A DNA stretch of 64,000 nt from an uncultured Alphaproteobacteria bacterium (lineage in GTDB: Bacteria; Pseudomonadota; Alphaproteobacteria; RF32; CAG-239), in assembly GCA_944393725.1 (NCBI GenBank), contig CALYBC010000009.1:210099-274098 (forward strand), given 5' to 3'. The notes under the pieces are model-generated. The model had not been told where the DNA came from. It searched no databases and saw only the letters and a program-made list of their open reading frames with translations. Made by a program: the position numbers and the translations under genes. Shown piece by piece: positions 2,984 to 62,002 of the stretch (within the stretch, counting starts at the first letter, position 1; every line of letters starts with the position of its first letter).

Positions 2984-4602
2984 CTTTTGGCATTATTTGC
3001 GGCCATTTTCATAGCTTGATAAAAAGTTATCGTCTTATTGGCTTGGGTTTGGTTTTGGTTGCCCAAGTTCTTGGTCGCTGTTAATTTACCATCGACAACT
3101 TCATAACCATATTCCCGAATCAAGTCGGTTTTTATTGCTTCTGGCATCTGACCAAGAATACTTTCTTCTATTGATGAGGCAATAAACTTATCGGCTTTGG
3201 CTTTTACATCTGCCGATGAAAGCGTTTTGAAGGTTCCATCCGGATTTTCCACGGGATCCCTTCCGCCTTCGTAATATTTCATATCCGGACTGCCGACAAT
3301 ACTCCTCTTTAGTGTAAGGAGATACGGTATATCCTCGGAAAGGACAAAACCTTCAAAACCATGACGGTCAATCAGACCATAACTGCGCTCGCCTCCTACA
3401 CTGCGATATAATGATAATGCTTCTCTGATTTTTTCGGCGGGAGCTTGGGAATTAACCTGTTTGAAAAATTCGGTGTTTTTGGCATTTCCCTCATCAGTAT
3501 TGTATACAAACATGCAAACCGCAGCAATTTTGCTCGGAGAAAGGTCGCAATTTATATGTTTAAACTGCGGATATACATATTTTTCTAAATGGGCAACAAC
3601 ATCTTCATATGCTTTTTCTTTGGTGGTTGTATCACCATTTTTAACTTTGCGGCCGTCAGCATAGCGTCTGGAACCGTAACCGATGGTCAGCTCTCCGGCT
3701 TGACACTTATAGGCAGTACTTCTATAACTCTCAAACGCAGCAATCAGACATACTATTTCTTTTTCGTGCTCTTTGGCTGTGCTGTAATTGTTGAAATAGG
3801 CTTGGTTTTGAGTTTCGCGTTCGGCAAAAAAATTCTGCATTTCTTGTTTTTCTTGCGCAATAGCTTCTTTTTGTGCCTTCATTATTTTTGAAGCTTCGGC
3901 AATACGCGGAGTTACTTTGACCGCGCCTAAAGTCGAAGCTACGATAAGAGCCTTAAGAGCGCCTTTGCGAATGTAGGGTATTGCTTTATCTTGTATAAAT
4001 CCGTGAACCCGATTTTTGGCAAAATGATATTTTTTATTAAGCAGATGATATGTTGCCGCCGGCAAGGCTCCTAAAGCTCCGCTCAAAACATGCGCTGTTT
4101 GTTTTGCGGTAAATTTAACTCCTTTACCAACGGCTTTAGAAGTTTCTTTCAAACAATGAAGATAATGAAGCTTATCAAGTTTTGATAAATAATCTTTATT
4201 CATGCTTATGGCAAAGTTCTTGTCGGGATGTTCTTTTCTTGCCCGTAGAGCCTTTTTTACAGCCTTTGAATAAACAATCTTAATACTGTCTTTAGTACTA
4301 TTTATGATAGCTTCATCAGACAAGCCCTTTTGGGTCTGTTCAAAAGACGGTATTATATATACATTTCCTGATTTAATTTCTCTTGGATAACAAGGGGCAT
4401 CCGGATGTTTGGCATTGTAATCTTCATATTTTTTAAAACGTTTATCCATAAAATGCAACAAATCATCAACGAATATATCGCTGTTACCTTTGTATTTTAC
4501 CGGAATTGGCAGTCTAAGTCCCAAAACATCGCAATATTTGGGAGTGGAATAGCCATATTCGTCAATTACCTGCTTTTGATATTCTTTGAAGTTCATTACC
4601 AA
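2980..4602 (-). CDS. Large protein with a GH24 (phage T4-type) lysozyme domain
   Basis: AAFESYRSTAYKCQAGELTIGYG aligns position for position with T4 lysozyme E11...D20...T26 (here E-x8-C-x5-T). About 290 aa lie N-terminal to it, with no obvious signal peptide but internal hydrophobic stretches. About 150 aa lie C-terminal. Confidence 0.7.
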   Translation of the reverse strand: MVMNFKEYQKQVIDEYGYSTPKYCDVLGLRLPIPVKYKGNSDIFVDDLLHFMDKRFKKYEDYNAKHPDAPCYPREIKSGNVYIIPSFEQTQKGLSDEAIINSTKDSIKIVYSKAVKKALRARKEHPDKNFAISMNKDYLSKLDKLHYLHCLKETSKAVGKGVKFTAKQTAHVLSGALGALPAATYHLLNKKYHFAKNRVHGFIQDKAIPYIRKGALKALIVASTLGAVKVTPRIAEASKIMKAQKEAIAQEKQEMQNFFAERETQNQAYFNNYSTAKEHEKEIVCLIAAFESYRSTAYKCQAGELTIGYGSRRYADGRKVKNGDTTTKEKAYEDVVAHLEKYVYPQFKHINCDLSPSKIAAVCMFVYNTDEGNAKNTEFFKQVNSQAPAEKIREALSLYRSVGGERSYGLIDRHGFEGFVLSEDIPYLLTLKRSIVGSPDMKYYEGGRDPVENPDGTFKTLSSADVKAKADKFIASSIEESILGQMPEAIKTDLIREYGYEVVDGKLTATKNLGNQNQTQANKTITFYQAMKMAANNAKS

Positions 4603-4674
4603 ACCCTTGTTTAACTGTTAGTTATACTTATATTTTATATTAGCATAATCTTAAAATATTGCAAACAGTTTTTA

Positions 4675-4699
4675 GACAAAATAATCATTTTATTTTGTC
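4675..4699. promoter_or_regulatory. Perfect 10-bp inverted repeat GACAAAATAA-N5-TTATTTTGTC in the divergent promoter region upstream of the fab cluster
   Basis: Read directly from the sequence. It lies in a 327-bp AT-rich intergenic region. Function is unknown (operator or hairpin). Confidence 0.2.
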
Positions 4700-4959
4700 A
4701 ATGTGATTTTAGTCTATTTATACACTGGTTTAGCATATTGTTTTTACTATATTTTATTTATCATATAATTATACATTCAATCAACTGATTGACTTTTGTT
4801 TTTTTGAGTGTATTATCCCCAGAAGTGTCTGTTTAAAAGTCATGGTTTCTGCTAAGAAACTATGCGGCTTGTGGGTGCGTACTTTACAAATCTCACAAAA
4901 TATTGTTTATTTTTTGTAACTGTTGATGTATGTTAACCGATAACGAAAGGATTTATGTC

Positions 4960-5409
4960 ATGGAAGAAAATGTTATCAAGGAGCTGAATATTAAAGATAT
5001 ATTGTCTTTGTTGCCACATCGTTACCCGTTTTTGTTGGTGGATAAAGTTAAAATTATCAGAGCCGGAGAAGAAGGTATCGGCATCAAAAACATTACCGTG
5101 AACGAACCGCAATTTACCGGACACTTCCCCGAAAATCCGATTATGCCCGGTGTTTTGATTATGGAAGCCATGGCTCAAACTTGCGGTATTGTTGTTAAAG
5201 ATGTTATCGGAGGAGATAACACAAAGGCTGTTTTGTTTATGGGTATTGATGAAGCAAAGTTCCGTAAGCCTTTCTTGCCCGGTGATGTTATGGAAATGCA
5301 TGTGGTTAAAGAAAAAGAATGCCGCGGAGTTTATCGCTTCAGATGTCAGGCAAAATGCAACGGTGTAATTCATGCCGAAGCTTTGCTTACCGCTATGATG
5401 GGCAGATAA
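4960..5409 (+). CDS. fabZ: 3-hydroxyacyl-ACP dehydratase FabZ
   Basis: LLPHRYPFLLVDKV and GHFP..PIMPGVL motifs. ATG 4960 follows AAGGA and gives a typical N-terminal length. The ORF track offers ATG 4930 as an alternative. Confidence 0.9.
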   Translation: MEENVIKELNIKDILSLLPHRYPFLLVDKVKIIRAGEEGIGIKNITVNEPQFTGHFPENPIMPGVLIMEAMAQTCGIVVKDVIGGDNTKAVLFMGIDEAKFRKPFLPGDVMEMHVVKEKECRGVYRFRCQAKCNGVIHAEALLTAMMGR

Positions 5410-31431: not shown

Positions 31432-31484
31432 CCATACCAAAAAAAACTACCCTTCCGGGTGGCTTTTAATTGGTGGGCACTGAA
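31432..31484. repeat. Direct repeat copy 1: terminator plus tRNA-like 3' end
   Basis: CCATACC-A8-CTACCCTTCCGGGTGGCTTTTAATTGGTGGGCACTGA matches 31713-31764 with 1 indel and 2 substitutions. Confidence 0.9.
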
Positions 31485-31714
31485 CCGGTGACTCAAGCCA
31501 AACTGGCTTGAGTTGCACTGGCGGAGTTTTGCCGTACCCGGCAAACCAGCGATACTCCCGTCTCGCCTACTCCTTGTAGTGCACACCCGCTTCGCACTGT
31601 GTGTCCTCTCTGCGTTCGGATCGTTTCACTGCGTTCAACTTCCAACTGCGTCCCACTTATCGCGGGACTTGTTAGTCGAACTCCCTTCCTCGGAAGTTCA
31701 AACCTCAAGCCCCC
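31471..31714 (-). ncRNA. Unassigned GC-rich structured RNA candidate with tRNA-like ends (5' GGGGGCU, 3' AGUGCCCACCA)
   Basis: About 55% G+C by hand count in visibly AT-rich DNA. Several strong hairpins, followed by its own copy of the tRNA-Val terminator. The overlapping ORFs look spurious. Identity is unknown. Confidence 0.35.
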
Positions 31715-31764
31715 ATACCAAAAAAACCACCCTTCCGGGTGGCTTTTAATTGGTGGGCGCTGAG
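31713..31764. repeat. Direct repeat copy 2: tRNA-Val 3' end plus its terminator
   Basis: Partner of 31432-31484. Confidence 0.9.
31720..31743 (-). terminator. Rho-independent terminator of tRNA-Val
   Basis: Minus strand reads CCACCC-GGAA-GGGTGG followed by T7. Confidence 0.8.
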
Positions 31765-31826
31765 AGGTTCGAACTCCCGACCCTCTCGGTGTAAACGAGA
31801 TGCTCTTCCAGCTGAGCTAAGCGCCC
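31751..31826 (-). tRNA. tRNA-Val (anticodon UAC), CCA encoded
   Basis: Hand-folded cloverleaf: GGGCGCT/AGCGCCC acceptor, anticodon loop TTTACAC, T-arm GGGAG-TTCGAAC-CTCTC. 76 nt. Confidence 0.95.
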
Positions 31827-49079: not shown

Positions 49080-49228
49080 GTATATATTGCTACTATACTT
49101 ATATGTATTTGTCTACCTTTTTTTCCTTCGTTTGAATAAAAAGATTTGCTTAAAAATTAAATATAACTTAGCAAAACGAATCGAATAAGAAATTTAATAT
49201 TTAACTCTTATCAACTATGGAGGAGGCG

Positions 49229-49349
49229 AAAATATTGAACCCTACGAGCCAGAGCTAGCAACGCAAAAACTCCGAGGATTTGTATCCTCGGAGTTTTTAG
49301 AAATATGGATATTGTTCAATATATATGGTGCCGGTTATGTGACTCGAAC
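49229..49349. repeat. Direct repeat copy 1 (121 bp): region downstream of tRNA-Thr, its terminator, and the tRNA 3' end
   Basis: 3 mismatches versus 49503-49623 (offset 274 bp). Contains the hairpin CTCCGAGGA-TTTGTA-TCCTCGGAG at 49265-49298. Confidence 0.95.
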
Positions 49350-49374
49350 TCTACCCCCTAAGCATTACGAATGC
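49326..49374 (-). pseudogene. tRNA-Thr fragment (3' two-thirds, T-stem disrupted, 5' third missing)
   Basis: The last 23 nt including CCA and the 13-nt anticodon stem-loop core GCATTCGTAATGC are identical to the intact gene. The variable and T-stem 5' strand has diverged. Confidence 0.7.
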
Positions 49375-49502
49375 GGCGAGGATAAAAAAAGCCAAAAGTA
49401 ATTGGCTTTTTTACCGTAGGTTACGCCCTTGTCGGTTTGTTTGGCTTTGCTTTTGCAATGCAAAGCAAACCCTATAAGGGCGGTGACCGAAGCGAGTTGG
49501 CT

Positions 49503-49599
49503 AAAATATTGAGCCCTACGAGCCAGAGCTAGCAACGCAAAAACTCCGAGGATTTGTATCCTCGGAGTTTTTAGAAATATGGATATTATTCAATATACA

Positions 49600-49623
<24 letters not shown>
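49503..49623. repeat. Direct repeat copy 2 (overlaps the intact tRNA-Thr 3' end)
   Basis: Partner of 49229-49349; terminator hairpin at 49539-49572. Confidence 0.95.
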
Positions 49624-49675
<52 letters not shown>

Positions 49676-58029: not shown

Positions 58030-58802
58030 TTCTCCTTGGTATATTTTACGTAAATCGGAACACTATCTTGGCAATTATCTAGATATTTGCTTAATTTACC
58101 TGTTTGCCATGGTATGTCAATACATCCGGCAGAACCCTTTTCAATACCTCCATGAATTGAAAATCCGTCTCGTCCATAAGTATTGGTATTATTATCAGGT
58201 GTAAGCCAAACTCTTCTTAGTCCCCAAGCAGGGGTAGAACCCCGCCAATTCCCCTGTTTTATAATACCTGCAACTGCATTTATCGGATCAATTGTTTGTC
58301 TCTGGTTCTGTGATGCATAATATGTGCCTTCAGGTATGGGGCCTAAATCTTTTACTGATTGATATTTTTTAGCCTAATAATTTGGATTTCCTGACATTGC
58401 ATCTAATGTATGTTGATAGCTGGAATTTCCTCCATTAAGCTCTAAGTTTTGACCATCAAATGTCATATAACAATTTGCATTATCATTGTTAGGCCTTGAT
58501 AGTGGTTTGGAAAAGCTGTTTTGACTATCCCAATCATTGCTTAGCAACTTGTTTGCCAGTGCATTGGCGGAATTTGAGCTGATATTGGCGACGGAATTTA
58601 CATCCTTACTCAACTCGGCAGATAGACGGTTCATCTCGTCTAAATCAAAACGAGTTTGAAGCTCGTCTCTTAAACTCATATTGCTATAGTCTATCGTATC
58701 CGGTGATTGATATTTTGATTGCAGTGATTGCAATTTTCTCTCTTCCCTTCCCCTCTTTAGTTGCTCAAGCCGTTCTTGAAAAGTTGTGTTGTAGTTTGTC
58801 AT
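58023..58802 (-). pseudogene. Polymorphic-toxin-like gene: conserved N-terminal module plus Tlde1/DUF2778-like (YkuD-fold) domain, interrupted by an in-frame TAG at 58374-58376
   Basis: My own translation gives 142 codons, TAG, then 116 further sense codons with no start codon (GPIPEGTYY...RDGFSIHGGIEKGSAGCID). The stop falls inside the predicted domain. Confidence 0.6.
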
Positions 58803-58950
58803 TTCTTGATGTTTCCTTCCTTATAAAATATTTCTTTACCGATAGTCCGCAATATCATATAGAACATTTTTTGAACTTTGTAAAGTCCTACACTCTACTT
58901 GTCAACAACTTTATTGTGCTTATACTGCTCCTTACACTAAAAAGTTGAAT
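58614..58950. repeat. A-repeat copy 2: promoter, leader and first ~63 codons
   Basis: Direct repeat of 61630-61966 (offset 3016 bp). High identity upstream and over the N-terminal codons, diverging downstream. Confidence 0.85.
58877..58905 (-). promoter_or_regulatory. Sigma70-like promoter TTGACA-N17-TACAAA
   Basis: Read on the minus strand about 70 nt upstream of ATG 58802. Conserved in the paralogous copy at 61893-61921. Confidence 0.45.
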
Positions 58951-58952
58951 CA

Positions 58953-59498
58953 CTATCCTTGTTGAGGGGTTACGGCCCGAATAATCTCGTTTTGATGTGA
59001 CGATACCCAATCTATACCCCAAAGAGCCAGAAAAATACAAACCAATACATAAACATAGGGATACCTTAGCAAAGGACTATGTAAGTCGGCATTTCTATTG
59101 GGCGATGTCGGATAAAAAAACATTAGCAAAACGAGTAATGTATATAGATGAAAAACAATTTTTGATATCGTATCTAAGATACCTATATCATCCAGACCAA
59201 ATGGCTCAAATATCGTGGTAAAAAAGAAGCAAATTGTTGCTAATATTATTATCAATGTGCCTTTGATATTGATGTCGCGACACCTCTTTTGAAATGCTAT
59301 CAACATTATATAGCCATAAATAAAATTTATTATAATGAGTGAAACATCAAATTTTTTCAAAACACTGTCAACAACAGAAGATATTGCCGTAGCAGAAAAA
59401 AATTGTGAACCGTCTATAAACCCTTTGAATGAAAAAAAATATCGCAGAGATAGCTCTTTGGTGCGATTTATTATATGTTGTATGTTTGTGTCTGACAT
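58953..59498 (-). CDS. DUF805-like integral membrane protein (copy B2)
   Basis: FSFKGFIDGSQFF and ...AFQKRCRDINIKG resemble the DUF805 pattern (FSFKGRI...RRLHD.G.SG). It differs from copy B1 at 2 of 181 residues. Confidence 0.6.
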   Translation of the reverse strand: MSDTNIQHIINRTKELSLRYFFSFKGFIDGSQFFSATAISSVVDSVLKKFDVSLIIINFIYGYIMLIAFQKRCRDINIKGTLIIILATICFFFTTIFEPFGLDDIGILDTISKIVFHLYTLLVLLMFFYPTSPNRNADLHSPLLRYPYVYVLVCIFLALWGIDWVSSHQNEIIRAVTPQQG

Positions 59499-59565
59499 TG
59501 ATATTTCCTTTTTTTAGGATTGGGGCAGATATTATTATTTAGATAATACCAACCCCTATCTGCCT
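58953..59565. repeat. B-repeat copy 2 (gene plus ~70-bp leader)
   Basis: Direct repeat of 60472-61082 (offset 1519 bp). Confidence 0.9.
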
Positions 59566-59571
59566 ACTTTA

Positions 59572-59649
59572 TTATTCTATTTTGTAACAGCCGTGTTCTT
59601 TATCCCATTTCCAGCAATCCGCACGGCAACGATGCTCGTTATAATCCCA
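59572..59649. repeat. C-repeat copy 2 (78 bp, 3' end of the gene)
   Basis: 3 mismatches versus 59997-60074. Confidence 0.9.
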
Positions 59650-59970
59650 TACTCCCGAGCCACTGTCAAAGCATCTGTCAATGGCATGTCGTTCAACTAT
59701 AGGCGGATAATAAAAAAACATTAAAAGATAAATAATAAATGATATTGCAAATATTATGTATGACACTTTTCTTATGCTTGCAAAAAATGTAGCAGCAAAA
59801 GAAATTAAACATATTACCATTACAATACCATAAATTATAAAGCTATATTCGGTAATTGAGAATGCTATGAAAAAGTCAACGGCAAAAAAGACTAATAACA
59901 ACAGAAATATTGCTATTTTTAGTGCTGATTTTGTGGCTTTGAATATAATATTTACAATATTTTTATGCAT
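59572..59970 (-). CDS. Small membrane protein with a Cys/Trp-rich C-terminal motif (copy C2)
   Basis: ATG 59970 follows GAAGGT. The protein starts MHKNIVNI, has roughly 3 TM helices, and ends WDYNEHRCRADCWKWDKEHGCYKIE. The track's longer 60054 start overlaps C1 out of frame. Confidence 0.5.
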   Translation of the reverse strand: MHKNIVNIIFKATKSALKIAIFLLLLVFFAVDFFIAFSITEYSFIIYGIVMVICLISFAATFFASIRKVSYIIFAISFIIYLLMFFYYPPIVERHAIDRCFDSGSGVWDYNEHRCRADCWKWDKEHGCYKIE

Positions 59971-59996
59971 ATTAATACCTTCGTGATTGTAAGAAA

Positions 59997-60074
59997 TTAT
60001 TCTATTTTGTAACAGCCGTGTTCTGTATCCCATTTCCAGCAATCCGTCCGGCAACGATGCTCGTTATAATCCCA
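59997..60074. repeat. C-repeat copy 1
   Basis: Partner of 59572-59649. Confidence 0.9.
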
Positions 60075-60410
60075 AACTTTAGAACTATCTATACAATCTG
60101 TATAAGCCATATATTGTTTATATTGCGGAAATATGCCATAGCTTTTCTCAATACATAATAATGATAATATCCAGATTATCATCATAATTTTTTTCTTAAC
60201 AAACAAACTTGACAAACACACCAAGCTTAAAATTACTGACAAACATAACTTAAACTTAAGAATATTTTGCAAACTACTGTCTTTAATTGATGAGATATCA
60301 AACCATAGCCAAAAATTGCCTAATATATAAAGGAAGAATAATATACAAAACATTGCACTTATTCCGATAGAAAAAAACTTGATGGCTTTTTGTAAAATTA
60401 TTTTATGCAT
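59997..60410 (-). CDS. Small membrane protein with a Cys/Trp-rich C-terminal motif (copy C1)
   Basis: ATG 60410 follows AAGGAAG. The protein starts MHKIILQK and ends WDYNEHRCRTDCWKWDTEHGCYKIE. Confidence 0.5.
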   Translation of the reverse strand: MHKIILQKAIKFFSIGISAMFCILFFLYILGNFWLWFDISSIKDSSLQNILKFKLCLSVILSLVCLSSLFVKKKIMMIIWILSLLCIEKSYGIFPQYKQYMAYTDCIDSSKVWDYNEHRCRTDCWKWDTEHGCYKIE

Positions 60411-60471
60411 ACTATCTTCCTTTATATCGTTTTTCATATTTTTTGTGCTGTCTGTTATAATTTTACCAATC

Positions 60472-61017
60472 CTATCCTTGTTGAGGGGTTACGGCCTGAA
60501 TAATCTCGTTTTGATGTGACGATACCCAATCTATACCCCAAAGAGCCAGAAAAATACAAACCAATACATAAACATAGGGATACCTTAGCAAAGGACTATG
60601 TAAATCGGCATTTCTGTTGGGCGATGTCGGATAAAAAAACATTAACAAAACAAGTAATGTATATAAATGGAAAACAATTTTTGATATCGTATCTAAGATA
60701 CCTATATCATCCAGACCAAATGGCTCAAATATTGTGGTAAAAAAGAAGCAAATCGTTGCTAATATTATTATCAATGTACCTTTGATATTGATGTCGCGGC
60801 ACCTCTTTTGAAATGCTATCAGCATTATATAGCCATAAATAAAATTTATTATAATGAGCGAAACATCAAATTTTTTCAAAACACTGTCAACAACAGAAGA
60901 GATTGCCGTAGCCGAAAAAAATTGTGAACCGTCTATAAAGCCTTTGAATGAAAAAAAATATCGCAGAGATAGCTCTTTGGTGCGATTTCTTATATGTTGT
61001 ATGTTTGTGTCTGACAT
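60472..61017 (-). CDS. DUF805-like integral membrane protein (copy B1)
   Basis: See copy B2. Located immediately downstream of the 241-aa family member. Confidence 0.6.
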   Translation of the reverse strand: MSDTNIQHIRNRTKELSLRYFFSFKGFIDGSQFFSATAISSVVDSVLKKFDVSLIIINFIYGYIMLIAFQKRCRDINIKGTLIIILATICFFFTTIFEPFGLDDIGILDTISKIVFHLYTLLVLLMFFYPTSPNRNADLHSPLLRYPYVYVLVCIFLALWGIDWVSSHQNEIIQAVTPQQG

Positions 61018-61082
61018 TGATATTTCCTTTTTTAGGATTGGGGCAGATATTATTTAGATAGTACCCACCCCTATATGCCTAA
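60472..61082. repeat. B-repeat copy 1
   Basis: Partner of 58953-59565. Confidence 0.9.
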
Positions 61083-61092
61083 TATATTATTT

Positions 61093-61818
61093 TCATTTTT
61101 TCAACCAATTTGATAAACCAAATTGATTTAAAAGACCCGAAAAAGCACCTGCTGATTTGGCATCGGCCCAGGCTTTTGCTCCGTATTCTATTACATCATT
61201 AGCTATCTTGTTGGCTCTGCCTAGGCCTGCCGCTTCGGCTTGCCTTTGCATTTGTTGCTTGTTTTTGTTATAATAATCACCCAGATATTTTGAACTTAGT
61301 TTGTCAAAATACCCGTTTGTAGCTCCGTTAACAGCCGTCAACATACCGCTTTCAATTCCTTCACCAAACCCTTGCAATGCTGCTGCGGCTATCTCCCATG
61401 CATGACTTTTGGGTACATAACTTGGCATTGGTTTGCCGGTTACCGTGTAAAAGCTGTTTTGATTATTAGGCTTGTATGCCCTAAGAGAGCTTACAATAGC
61501 TTCATTATCTTTGTCTTCTTGAGATATTGGTTTGTAAAATCCAGTTTGATTGGCAAAAGTATTGGGTTGCAATGTACCAACCATGGTATTATCGGAGTTT
61601 TTTCCAATATTATTGTTTCCAGAGCCTAACTTGGCGGAAAGACGGTTCATCTCGTCTAAATCAAAACGAGTTTGAAGTTCTTCCCTCAAGCTCATGTTGC
61701 CATAATTTATCTTTTCGGGATTTTGATATTTTGCTTGCAGTGATTGCAATTTTCTCTCTTCCCTTCCCCTCTTTAGTTGCTCAAGCCGTTCTTGAAAAGT
61801 TGTGTTGTTGTTTGTCAT
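61093..61818 (-). CDS. Polymorphic-toxin-like protein: same N-terminal module as 58802, unrelated C-terminal domain of unknown function
   Basis: MTNNNTTFQERLEQLKRGREERKLQSLQ... is shared with the 58802 gene. Similarity fades after about residue 105. No signal peptide. Confidence 0.55.
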   Translation of the reverse strand: MTNNNTTFQERLEQLKRGREERKLQSLQAKYQNPEKINYGNMSLREELQTRFDLDEMNRLSAKLGSGNNNIGKNSDNTMVGTLQPNTFANQTGFYKPISQEDKDNEAIVSSLRAYKPNNQNSFYTVTGKPMPSYVPKSHAWEIAAAALQGFGEGIESGMLTAVNGATNGYFDKLSSKYLGDYYNKNKQQMQRQAEAAGLGRANKIANDVIEYGAKAWADAKSAGAFSGLLNQFGLSNWLKK

Positions 61819-61966
61819 TTCTTGATGTTTCCTTCCTTATAAAATATTTCTTTACCGATAGTCCGCAACATTATATAGAACATTTTTTGAACTTTGTAAA
61901 GTCCTACACTCTACTTATCAACAACTTTATTGTGCTTACACCACTACTTGCACTAAAAAGTTGAAC
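61630..61966. repeat. A-repeat copy 1
   Basis: Partner of 58614-58950. Confidence 0.85.
61893..61921 (-). promoter_or_regulatory. Sigma70-like promoter TTGATA-N17-TACAAA
   Basis: Paralogous to the 58877-58905 element at the same 3016-bp offset. Confidence 0.4.
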
Positions 61967-61981
61967 CGCCCTTTATAAATA

Positions 61982-62002
61982 AGCGGGCTATCGCTAGCCC
62001 GC
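61982..62002 (-). terminator. Terminator hairpin downstream of rplS
   Basis: AGCGGGCTA-TCG-CTAGCCCGCT perfect palindrome followed on the minus strand by a T-rich stretch. Confidence 0.6.

Follow-up and report, generated by a model that had tools for sequence, protein, structure and literature searches.

A structured 244-nt segment behind an alphaproteobacterial tRNA-Val gene is probably a unit of a tRNA-linked repeat

Introduction

The window analyzed here, a 64,000-nt stretch of DNA from an uncultured alphaproteobacterium, contains a tRNA-Val gene whose 3′ end and terminator are repeated a short distance downstream, with a G+C-rich segment enclosed between the two copies. What is this segment? 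A first-pass annotation, made from the letters of the window, had offered two answers: a structured RNA derived from tRNA-Val with a foreign interior, or the scar of an element that integrated at the tRNA 3′ end. We consider that the segment is probably one unit of a tRNA-linked repeat (TLR), an RtT-like element, for which we infer steps of read-through, processing, recombination and protein binding. In E. coli, TLRs were first described in 1978 and number 22 copies at ten loci, with 1 to 5 copies per locus. Their hallmark is 18–19 bp of perfect identity with the upstream tRNA or rRNA at its 3′ end (PMC8144298).

Results

Two terminators bracket the segment behind tRNA-Val

The locus is read on the minus strand and is organized as follows.

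31751 to 31826, minus strand: tRNA-Val(UAC), the host gene; the repeat unit contains a copy of its 3′ part (ARAGORN; Rfam tRNA, 64.9 bits)
31720 to 31750, minus strand: terminator 1, consisting of an A-tract, the hairpin CCACCC-GGAA-GGGUGG (31742–31727) and a U7 run (31726–31720) (sequence, terminator scan)
31713 to 31763, minus strand: copy 1 of the direct repeat, comprising the last 13 nt of tRNA-Val, terminator 1 and GGUAUGG (repeat search)
31471 to 31714, minus strand: probable tRNA-linked repeat unit, 244 nt, a long form with two core modules (fold, covariance model, repeat analysis)
31439 to 31470, minus strand: terminator 2, a hairpin (31462–31447) and a U8 run (sequence, terminator scan)
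31432 to 31483, minus strand: copy 2 of the direct repeat (repeat search)

The segment was found where it had been placed before, from 31714 to 31471 after the tRNA-Val terminator. It starts with GGGGGCUUGAGG, 36 nt past the CCA of tRNA-Val on the same strand, and ends with GUGCCCACCA; only GGUAU separates it from the U7 run of terminator 1. Its G+C content, previously estimated at about 55% in AT-rich DNA, is 56.6%, compared with 39.1% for the window and 36–39% for the 2-kb flanks. The direct repeat, earlier described as 47–52 bp with one indel and two substitutions and followed by a second terminator, is about 51 nt long and shows the same differences between its copies. Exact 20-mer direct repeats occur at only three places in the 64-kb window. 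Elsewhere in the window, the gene for tRNA-Thr(CGU) carries a plain tandem duplication of its own 3′ half.

Between the two tRNA-end repeats lie only the 244 nt, and the ORFs there are overlapping artefacts on both strands. No promoter-like site was found between terminator 1 and the unit. In the fold of a co-transcript, the stem of terminator 1 can be extended, with the ACCA of the tRNA end pairing with UGGU at 31720–31717.

Known RNA families do not account for the segment

An Rfam scan of the segment returned no family at the gathering score or at E ≤ 10, and ARAGORN called no tRNA or tmRNA in it, in agreement with the earlier statement that it could not be matched to tmRNA, RNase P, SRP, 6S or 5S RNA. 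Weak Rfam matches to miRNA, SraG and RNAI models overlap the tRNA or the terminator and were set aside as chance. A tRNA or tRNA-pseudogene cloverleaf was rejected, as ARAGORN and Rfam call only tRNA-Val and nothing at 31471–31714. A tmRNA, standard or permuted, was rejected too: ARAGORN was negative in the window and Rfam at E ≤ 10, and the unit has no 3′ T-arm and no tag frame. A genuine permuted tmRNA is present elsewhere in a related genome (L050). We also rejected a ugd riboswitch or leader, since the downstream genes differ between lineages and a terminator intervenes.

The unit consists of tRNA-derived ends around two core modules

The segment is far more stable than expected, with a minimum free energy of −105.4 kcal/mol compared with −78.6 ± 4.7 kcal/mol for 200 shuffles (z = −5.75, no shuffle as good). 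All four strong hairpins listed in the first-pass annotation were located in it. We divided the unit into the following parts.

31692 to 31714, minus strand: 5′ arm GGGGGCUUGAGGUUUGAACUUCC, antisense to the T-arm and acceptor 3′ strand of tRNA-Val (20/24 positions, 1 gap; alignment score 26 vs a maximum of 20 in 500 shuffles)
31676 to 31701, minus strand: hairpin A, UUGAACUUCC-GAGGAA-GGGAGUUCGA, formed by the anti-T-arm strand and a copied T-stem 5′ strand with T-loop (sequence, covariation, model)
31622 to 31703, minus strand: module 1, hairpin A plus a reduced junction (GUCCC-GCGAUAAGU-GGGAC ... GCAGUGAAAC) (covariance model, 44.2 bits)
31511 to 31586, minus strand: module 2, a conserved three-way junction with helices PB, B1 and B2, then GCCAGUGCAAC (covariance model, 38.7 bits; covariation)
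31491 to 31513, minus strand: hairpin C, ACUCAAGCCA-GUU-UGGCUUGAGU (fold, repeat search)
31471 to 31483, minus strand: tail UCAGUGCCCACCA, copied from the end of tRNA-Val (13 nt, 1 mismatch; repeat analysis)

The 3′ strand of hairpin A is the 10-mer that had been noticed as identical to the T-arm of tRNA-Val. It is indeed present, as a copy of the T-stem 5′ strand and T-loop. In module 2, the helices are PB, GGAGU/ACUCC; B1, GGCGA-GACGGGAGUA-UCGCU; and B2, UUUGCCG-GGUA-CGGCAAA. The 5′ strand of hairpin C has an alternative pairing with GGCUUGAG of the 5′ arm. A candidate pairing over a longer range would join GACUAC/GGGYUG, which follow hairpin A, to GUAG/AGUC/CAGCC, which precede the tail; on visual inspection it seems plausible in several lineages.

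The covariance model described below matches the window twice (31703–31622 and 31586–31511), indicating that the 244-nt unit is a fusion of two cores; a search of the whole 64-kb window with the same model gave no further copies.

The two ends of the unit can pair with each other, as had been reported: GGGGGCU pairs with AGUGCCC at 6 of 7 positions, with one G-U pair counted and a G-G mismatch. This acceptor-like closing stem is not kept throughout the family. Several lineages have it in degenerate form or lack it; the Thr-linked units have none and that of the window is imperfect, so it is not universal. The 13-nt tail has one mismatch and 8 nt of exact identity, and its identity with copy 1 of the repeat runs on through the terminator. 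Given the imperfect closing stem and the mismatched tail, the window copy may be decaying.

The ends of each unit follow the tRNA that precedes it

To score the 5′ arm, we aligned it with the reverse-complemented 3′ end of the tRNA. This superseded an automated search for an acceptor-like 5′ strand, in which terminator sequences had interfered. In the window unit, the first 23 nt match the reverse complement of the last 24 nt of tRNA-Val before the discriminator at 20 of 24 positions. The unit thus starts like a tRNA 5′ acceptor strand because its 5′ arm is antisense to the tRNA 3′ end. The 5′ arms of the Ser, Arg and other Val units are antisense likewise; for the Thr and Gln units, the antisense match covers the T-arm half only. 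Antisense scores were above all 500 shuffles in every unit tested except Gln and Thr.

Complete units end with 11–19 nt identical to the 3′ end of their own upstream tRNA, most of them with 16–19 nt. In outline, a unit consists of a 5′ arm antisense to the tRNA, a copied T-stem 5′ strand with T-loop, the core, a variable 3′ domain, a tRNA tail and a terminator repeat. As predicted from these sequences, the 5′ strand, the anti-T-arm, the T-arm copy and the tail are one helix, made of the 3′ portion of the tRNA and an antisense arm, with the core inserted at the position of the T-loop. If tRNA and unit are transcribed together, the arm can also pair with the 3′ part of the real tRNA across the terminator, giving a long imperfect palindrome with arms of about 41 nt.

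The core is conserved and covaries

The core is a three-way junction rich in tandem G-A pairs, with a CGGGAG loop in B1. To describe it, we used alignment A3, which holds 20 diverse cores with a structure written by hand: hairpin A and the three-way junction (closing helix PB, hairpins B1 and B2). In A3, 84.8% of cells are paired, compared with 30–42% when the partners are slid by 1–3 columns. Changes on both sides occur in 14 of 24 pairs, and 0 of 500 shuffles reach the observed values. Across lineages, PB reads GGAGU/ACUCC, GCUCA/UGAGU, AUGAA/UGAAU or GCGAG/UGAGC, the last two with tandem G-A pairs.

From A3 we derived a covariance model, which gave 63 matches in the fetched DNA. Aligning 47 distinct sequences to this model yielded 17 pairs with double changes (0 of 500 shuffles), an alignment that is fitted to the model and hence biased towards the structure. 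Conservation and covariation in relatives, proposed earlier as a check, were thus found (14–17 double-change pairs, no shuffle of 500 reaching them). We counted 62 G-U pairs compared with 15 A-C, as well as 112 G-A cells. The excess of G-U over A-C implies that the fold belongs to the tRNA-sense strand and is RNA-like, and single-stranded DNA folded from that strand would be compatible with the covariation as well. These results show that the core is under selection for a strand-specific fold.

Units vary in number between strains and recur behind five tRNA species

At the same site, beside an identical HU protein, we observed three states: no insert (L002 and L003), 147 nt (L001) and 244 nt (the window). 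The empty site consists of tRNA-Val and one terminator, followed by the ugd leader. The 147-nt allele, from a MAG labelled 'uncultured proteobacterium', lacks module 1 and carries only the second core (alignment A1); the extra 97 nt of the window are flanked by short ACUA/CAAG repeats. A second species is polymorphic as well, filled in L050 and L052 and empty in L051, L053 and L054. The block inserted in L050 has its own diverged terminator.

The loci of relatives were chosen by HU proteins 83–94% identical, and all are from uncultured Alphaproteobacteria. In most of these lineages, related units stand directly after the tRNA-Val terminator, some of them in tandem. Truncation is common, in places down to the hairpin alone (L033, L039–44, L045, L051). 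In a relative (L028/L109), phage-like genes (D12 methylase, YopX, HNH) begin at tRNA-Val right after CCAATT and extend over more than 8 kb; in L028 the contig stops before this prophage ends.

In more distant uncultured Alphaproteobacteria and in metagenome contigs, the number of tandem units is 0–4, each of 160–185 nt. Scanning metagenome contigs with the hairpin-A pattern gave 44 loci, about 26 of them true members. A tRNA on the same strand lies at most 230 nt upstream in 24 of the 44 (Val 14, Thr 7, Ser 2, Arg 1), and 22 of these 24 tRNAs end 49–59 nt upstream of hairpin A. Tandem arrays of 2–4 units with a period of 165–183 nt were found (L075, L081, L082, L086, L089), and the units within one array are nearly identical. 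The same pattern in viral contigs returned one member (L061), near the end of an IMG/VR contig. It stands behind a 3′ fragment of tRNA-Thr(UGU), and its tail is the end of that tRNA. An exact 25-mer from the core matched only the window's own species when one genome per GTDB species was searched, and had no match in viral contigs.

When the 3′ end of each tRNA in the fetched loci was searched for further copies downstream, one more host emerged, tRNA-Gln(CUG), with a unit whose hairpin, GAGAACCAAG-AU-UUGGUUCGG, follows the Gln T-arm CUUGGUUCG. The host tRNAs are therefore Val, Thr, Ser, Arg and Gln. No genes were found inside units in any locus examined, and no integrase lies between the repeats. 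The downstream gene differs by lineage (ugd, glycosyltransferase, RNase H, rpsL), with the upstream tRNA constant, which shows that the unit is linked to the tRNA and that the gene downstream of it varies.

Discussion

How the unit may work

Of the two earlier answers, that of a structured RNA derived from tRNA-Val stands for the ends of the unit, which are tRNA-derived, and for its RNA-like character. The interior turned out to be no one-off foreign insert; it is a conserved core found in dozens of units from many lineages. Our preferred reading, a tRNA-linked repeat unit, leads to the following proposal. The unit would have no promoter of its own and would be transcribed when RNA polymerase passes the tRNA-Val terminator. 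Terminator 1 looks strong (a 6-bp G+C-rich stem and U7), so read-through may be rare. Once transcribed, the unit may fold on itself, its 5′ arm pairing with its own T-arm copy and tail to form an acceptor-like helix that ends in ACCA. Its release would be the work of tRNA-processing enzymes, with RNase P acting on the 5′ side and RNase E and exonucleases at the tail, as has been proposed likewise for RrB of E. coli. Since the Thr-linked units lack the acceptor-like 5′ strand, such tRNA-like processing cannot be general. By analogy with rrB, the conserved junction would most likely serve as a platform for protein binding.

At the DNA level, the repeats of about 50 bp, each made of a tRNA end and a terminator, would undergo unequal homologous recombination, by which units are added, dropped or fused. 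The 244-nt unit of the window, with its two cores, would be a product of such a fusion.

Other explanations

The most interesting alternative works at the DNA level, since some process must re-template three segments for each host tRNA. In this explanation, the unit would be a selfish DNA repeat at tRNA 3′ ends, spread by fold-back or template-switch or by a recombinase acting in trans, and its hairpins would be single-stranded DNA structures or recombinase sites. Several of our observations would suit it: the imperfect palindrome that the tRNA 3′ part, terminator and 5′ arm form with arms of about 41 nt, the 10-6-10 inverted repeat of hairpin A, which resembles the core site of a tyrosine recombinase, the near identity of units inside an array, the variation of copy number between strains, and the re-templating of all three tRNA-derived segments on each new host. 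However, no associated enzyme gene was found, and the three-way junction has no obvious DNA role. The surplus of G-U over A-C and the many G-A pairs best fit RNA, even if same-strand single-stranded DNA is still compatible with them, and rrA/B/F of E. coli, which belong to the same class, are expressed RNAs (PMC8144298). We therefore regard a purely selfish DNA repeat as unlikely.

Still less probable, in our estimate, is the integration scar named in the first-pass annotation. Here an element would have integrated site-specifically at the tRNA-Val 3′ end, with the two tRNA-end copies as its attL and attR and the 244 nt as the remainder after an internal deletion. Direct repeats of a tRNA 3′ end around an insert are the classic signature of integration, and the insert does vary among close strains. 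The L050 block arrives with its own diverged terminator, tRNA-Val takes more than 8 kb of phage-like genes in a relative (L028/L109), and a family member sits near the end of a viral contig in IMG/VR beside a tRNA-Thr 3′ fragment. Yet a scar accounts neither for the covariation, with compensatory changes in three helices of a 160–185-nt unit conserved over many lineages, nor for tandem arrays of up to 4 units. It also does not explain why the unit recurs behind five tRNA species and, in the same design, behind E. coli tyrT. Integration does not produce antisense and T-arm copies of the host tRNA, and none of the loci has an integrase or another gene of such an element between the repeats.

A functionless, decaying tandem duplicate of tRNA-Val with an insertion, its structure inherited from the tRNA and from G+C-rich filler, would fit the three tRNA-derived segments in tRNA order, the imperfect closing stem and tail of the window, the common truncated units and hairpin-only remnants and the plainly duplicated 3′ half of tRNA-Thr(CGU), but it is very improbable, because the non-tRNA core is the best conserved part and covaries, the 5′ arm is antisense to the tRNA 3′ part with no copy of the D and anticodon arms, and independent pseudogenization cannot yield homologous cores behind four tRNA species.

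What the family offers

Returning to the reading as a tRNA-linked repeat, the architecture of this class is now seen outside enterobacteria, in uncultured and partly gut-derived Alphaproteobacteria, and its three-way-junction core, supported by covariation, is new to Rfam. Two rules hold from these bacteria to E. coli tyrT: the 5′ arm is antisense to the cognate T-arm, mostly to the acceptor 3′ strand too, and hairpin A tracks the T-arm. The tail repeat together with the antisense arm provides a recipe to search for the class. The diverse alignment is usable for structure–function work, and the natural presence/absence and copy-number variation between strains can be used to seek a phenotype.

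Homologous cores stand behind Val, Thr, Ser and Arg tRNAs, and the same design with different cores stands behind tRNA-Gln and E. coli tRNA-Tyr. We speculated that TLRs could be cross-phylum 'tRNA-templated' modules, in which the antisense arm, the T-arm half and the tail are rebuilt from whichever tRNA precedes; this is a tentative idea, and we think it rather doubtful. If true, it would mean either an unrecognized copying mechanism at tRNA 3′ ends or an RNA that controls cognate read-through precursors. The copying could be fold-back or template-switch around the terminator palindrome, or the work of a trans-acting recombinase, and the unit would then be a new tRNA-parasitic miniature mobile element. 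Alternatively, the unit would be a dedicated RNA and use its antisense arm to sense or control how read-through precursors of the cognate tRNA mature.

Comparison with known systems

Among known RNAs, the unit recalls tmRNA-like molecules (tmRNA, YrlA, viral tRNA-like structures), as it starts with GGGG, ends with CCCACCA and has ends that can pair. The GGUUUGAAC that follows its 5′ strand is also reminiscent of the tmRNA sequence GGAUUCGAC. With attL/attR remnants it shares a duplicated tRNA 3′ end around a variably present insert; it differs from them in the lack of an integrase, the tiny covarying insert, the arrays and the antisense and T-arm copies.

A closer likeness is found in rrA, rrB and rrF of E. 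coli, which lie between T1 and T2 of rrnA, rrnB and rrnD and arise when transcription runs past T1 (Stenum et al. 2021, PMC8144298). They bind Hfq and CsrA in vitro, via GGA motifs, and their repeated tail was proposed to direct processing by RNase E; the remaining E. coli TLRs have no known function (PMC8144298). As in the window, where terminators 1 and 2 flank the unit, the element is placed between two terminators behind a stable-RNA gene. We checked the rrnB T1–T2 interval and found an 18-nt tail that equals the 5S 3′ end, and rrB has a hairpin loop, CGGGAG, as in helix B1 of the alphaproteobacterial unit. Unlike the family described here, these elements have 5S rRNA as the upstream gene, and no antisense arm is evident there. 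No significant sequence or model match was obtained between rrA/rrB/rrF and the alphaproteobacterial family.

The E. coli tRNA-linked repeats, RtT RNA included, are a close analogue that the first-pass annotation had not named. Reading the tyrT-tyrV-rttR locus of K-12 directly, we observed 178-bp units with 19-nt tails identical to the tRNA end. Their 5′ arm, GGGGAAGG-GUGA-GAACCUUC (also GGGGAAGG..GAGAACCUUC), is antisense to the tRNA-Tyr 3′ end, and they have a hairpin of an anti-T-arm strand and a T-arm copy. The consensus of Rfam RtT (RF00391) has a closing stem from arm to tail, GgGaaGG with CCuuCcC. In the RtT class, the unit is thus closed by its 5′ arm, which is antisense to the T-arm and to the acceptor 3′ strand and so pairs with the tail.

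Sequence comparison between the two gave little. The Rfam RtT model (gathering score, 45 bits) had no match at E ≤ 10 in the window region and none at E ≤ 1 in nine related loci, whereas the four E. coli RtT units, a control in the same run, scored 133–138 bits. Our own covariance model aligned all four of these units in register at 11–16 bits. We did not accept these scores as evidence of homology, as the model also gave a spurious 14.6-bit match inside 5S rRNA, which sets the noise level. The RtT matches were therefore not counted, and common descent with E. coli TLRs is unproven.

The inner cores are unlike, and in the Alphaproteobacteria a CGGGAG loop and tandem G-A pairs mark the three-way junction; the hosts are the Val, Thr, Ser, Arg and Gln tRNAs of uncultured Alphaproteobacteria, and each unit has its own terminator copy. 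In anatomy the two agree. Both lie directly downstream of a tRNA on the same strand, as the window unit does, and both form tandem copies, of 178 bp in E. coli and of 160–185 nt here (none, one or a fused two-core unit in the window's species, 2–4 elsewhere). The 3′ end repeats that of the upstream tRNA, over 19 nt in E. coli and 11–19 nt in the alphaproteobacterial units (13 nt with one mismatch in the window). An antisense 5′ arm, a closing stem between arm and tail (6 of 7 positions in the window), the T-arm hairpin and the short motif GUGAGAAC occur in both. Taken together, by its predicted anatomy, with sequence homology not demonstrated and the Rfam RtT model negative, this is a new alphaproteobacterial family of the known, little-studied TLR/RtT class. 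The element is not categorically new; it extends the class well beyond enterobacteria.

Other units at tRNA genes in relatives

Contigs of related strains, lineages or metagenomes hold further types of tRNA-linked unit. A second type linked to tRNA-Val, found in L046 / L048 4049-4500, shares hairpin A, GGUUCGAACUCCC-UC-GGGAGUUCGG, with the first and carries a tail of 15 nt; its body differs, being A+T-rich with a terminator-like hairpin inside. At least three copies lie in tandem in L048, and in L046 the unit is followed by a gene for an IS200/IS605-type Y1 transposase. About 1 kb downstream of tRNA-Val, L033 / L037 5213-6000 carry a tRNA-Thr(UGU) with units of its own, one or two copies of about 250 nt each. 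In these units the tail is 21 nt long, the acceptor-like 5' strand (GCCGGCA) is perfect, and the hairpin CGACCC...GGGUCG follows the variable-loop/T-stem junction, not the T-loop.

The L029 contig breaks off within its second tandem unit (3773-3792), passing into Illumina adapter sequence (AGATCGGAAGAGCACACGTC). Since assemblies break at tandem units, unit copy numbers from short-read contigs are lower bounds.

Rearrangement and insertion near tRNA-Val

The tRNA-linked repeat region is a local rearrangement hotspot. In L020, a 1.4-kb block (3710-5105) with a pair of small lipoprotein-like ORFs separates the CCA end of one unit from the truncated next unit (GGUUGAGGUUUGAACUG); at this site L017 and L018 have only a terminator.

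In one relative (L028 / L109 10500-18899), the usual terminator and repeat unit are replaced by phage-like genes (D12 methyltransferase, YopX, HNH and SocA_Panacea), which start directly after tRNA-Val ...CCAATT and span more than 8 kb. The contig stops short of the far junction. Strains without the repeat unit have an additional 207-aa ORF between hupB and tRNA-Val (L002 / L003 6344-6967), which gave no Pfam match and is absent from the window and from L001, a locus with a 147-nt unit.

tmRNA in a related genome

A tmRNA gene adjoining sspB was found in L050:
1397-1965, minus strand, alphaproteobacterial tmRNA gene of the permuted, two-piece kind, scoring 219 bits with Rfam alpha_tmRNA
This gene confirms that the lineage possesses a normal tmRNA elsewhere.

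Other direct repeats in the window

Long direct repeats spaced 3016, 1519 and 425 nt apart occupy 58600-62000 and take in two ORFs and those adjoining them, none of which matched Pfam:
58953-59498, minus strand, first 181-aa ORF
60472-61017, minus strand, second 181-aa ORF

Within 49225-49675, exact 20-mers are repeated 274 nt apart. The features there are:
49675-49600, minus strand, tRNA-Thr(CGU)
49374-49326, minus strand, decayed copy of the 3' 49 nt of this tRNA (anticodon arm to CCA)
The tRNA is followed by a terminator and then by about 130 nt of different sequence. The final 24 nt of the copy are exact, and beyond it about 100 nt of the tRNA-downstream sequence are present again. The anti-T-arm hairpin is absent from this region. 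Possible readings of the repeat are a simple tandem duplication, an att-type scar and a "proto" form of the tRNA-linked repeat.
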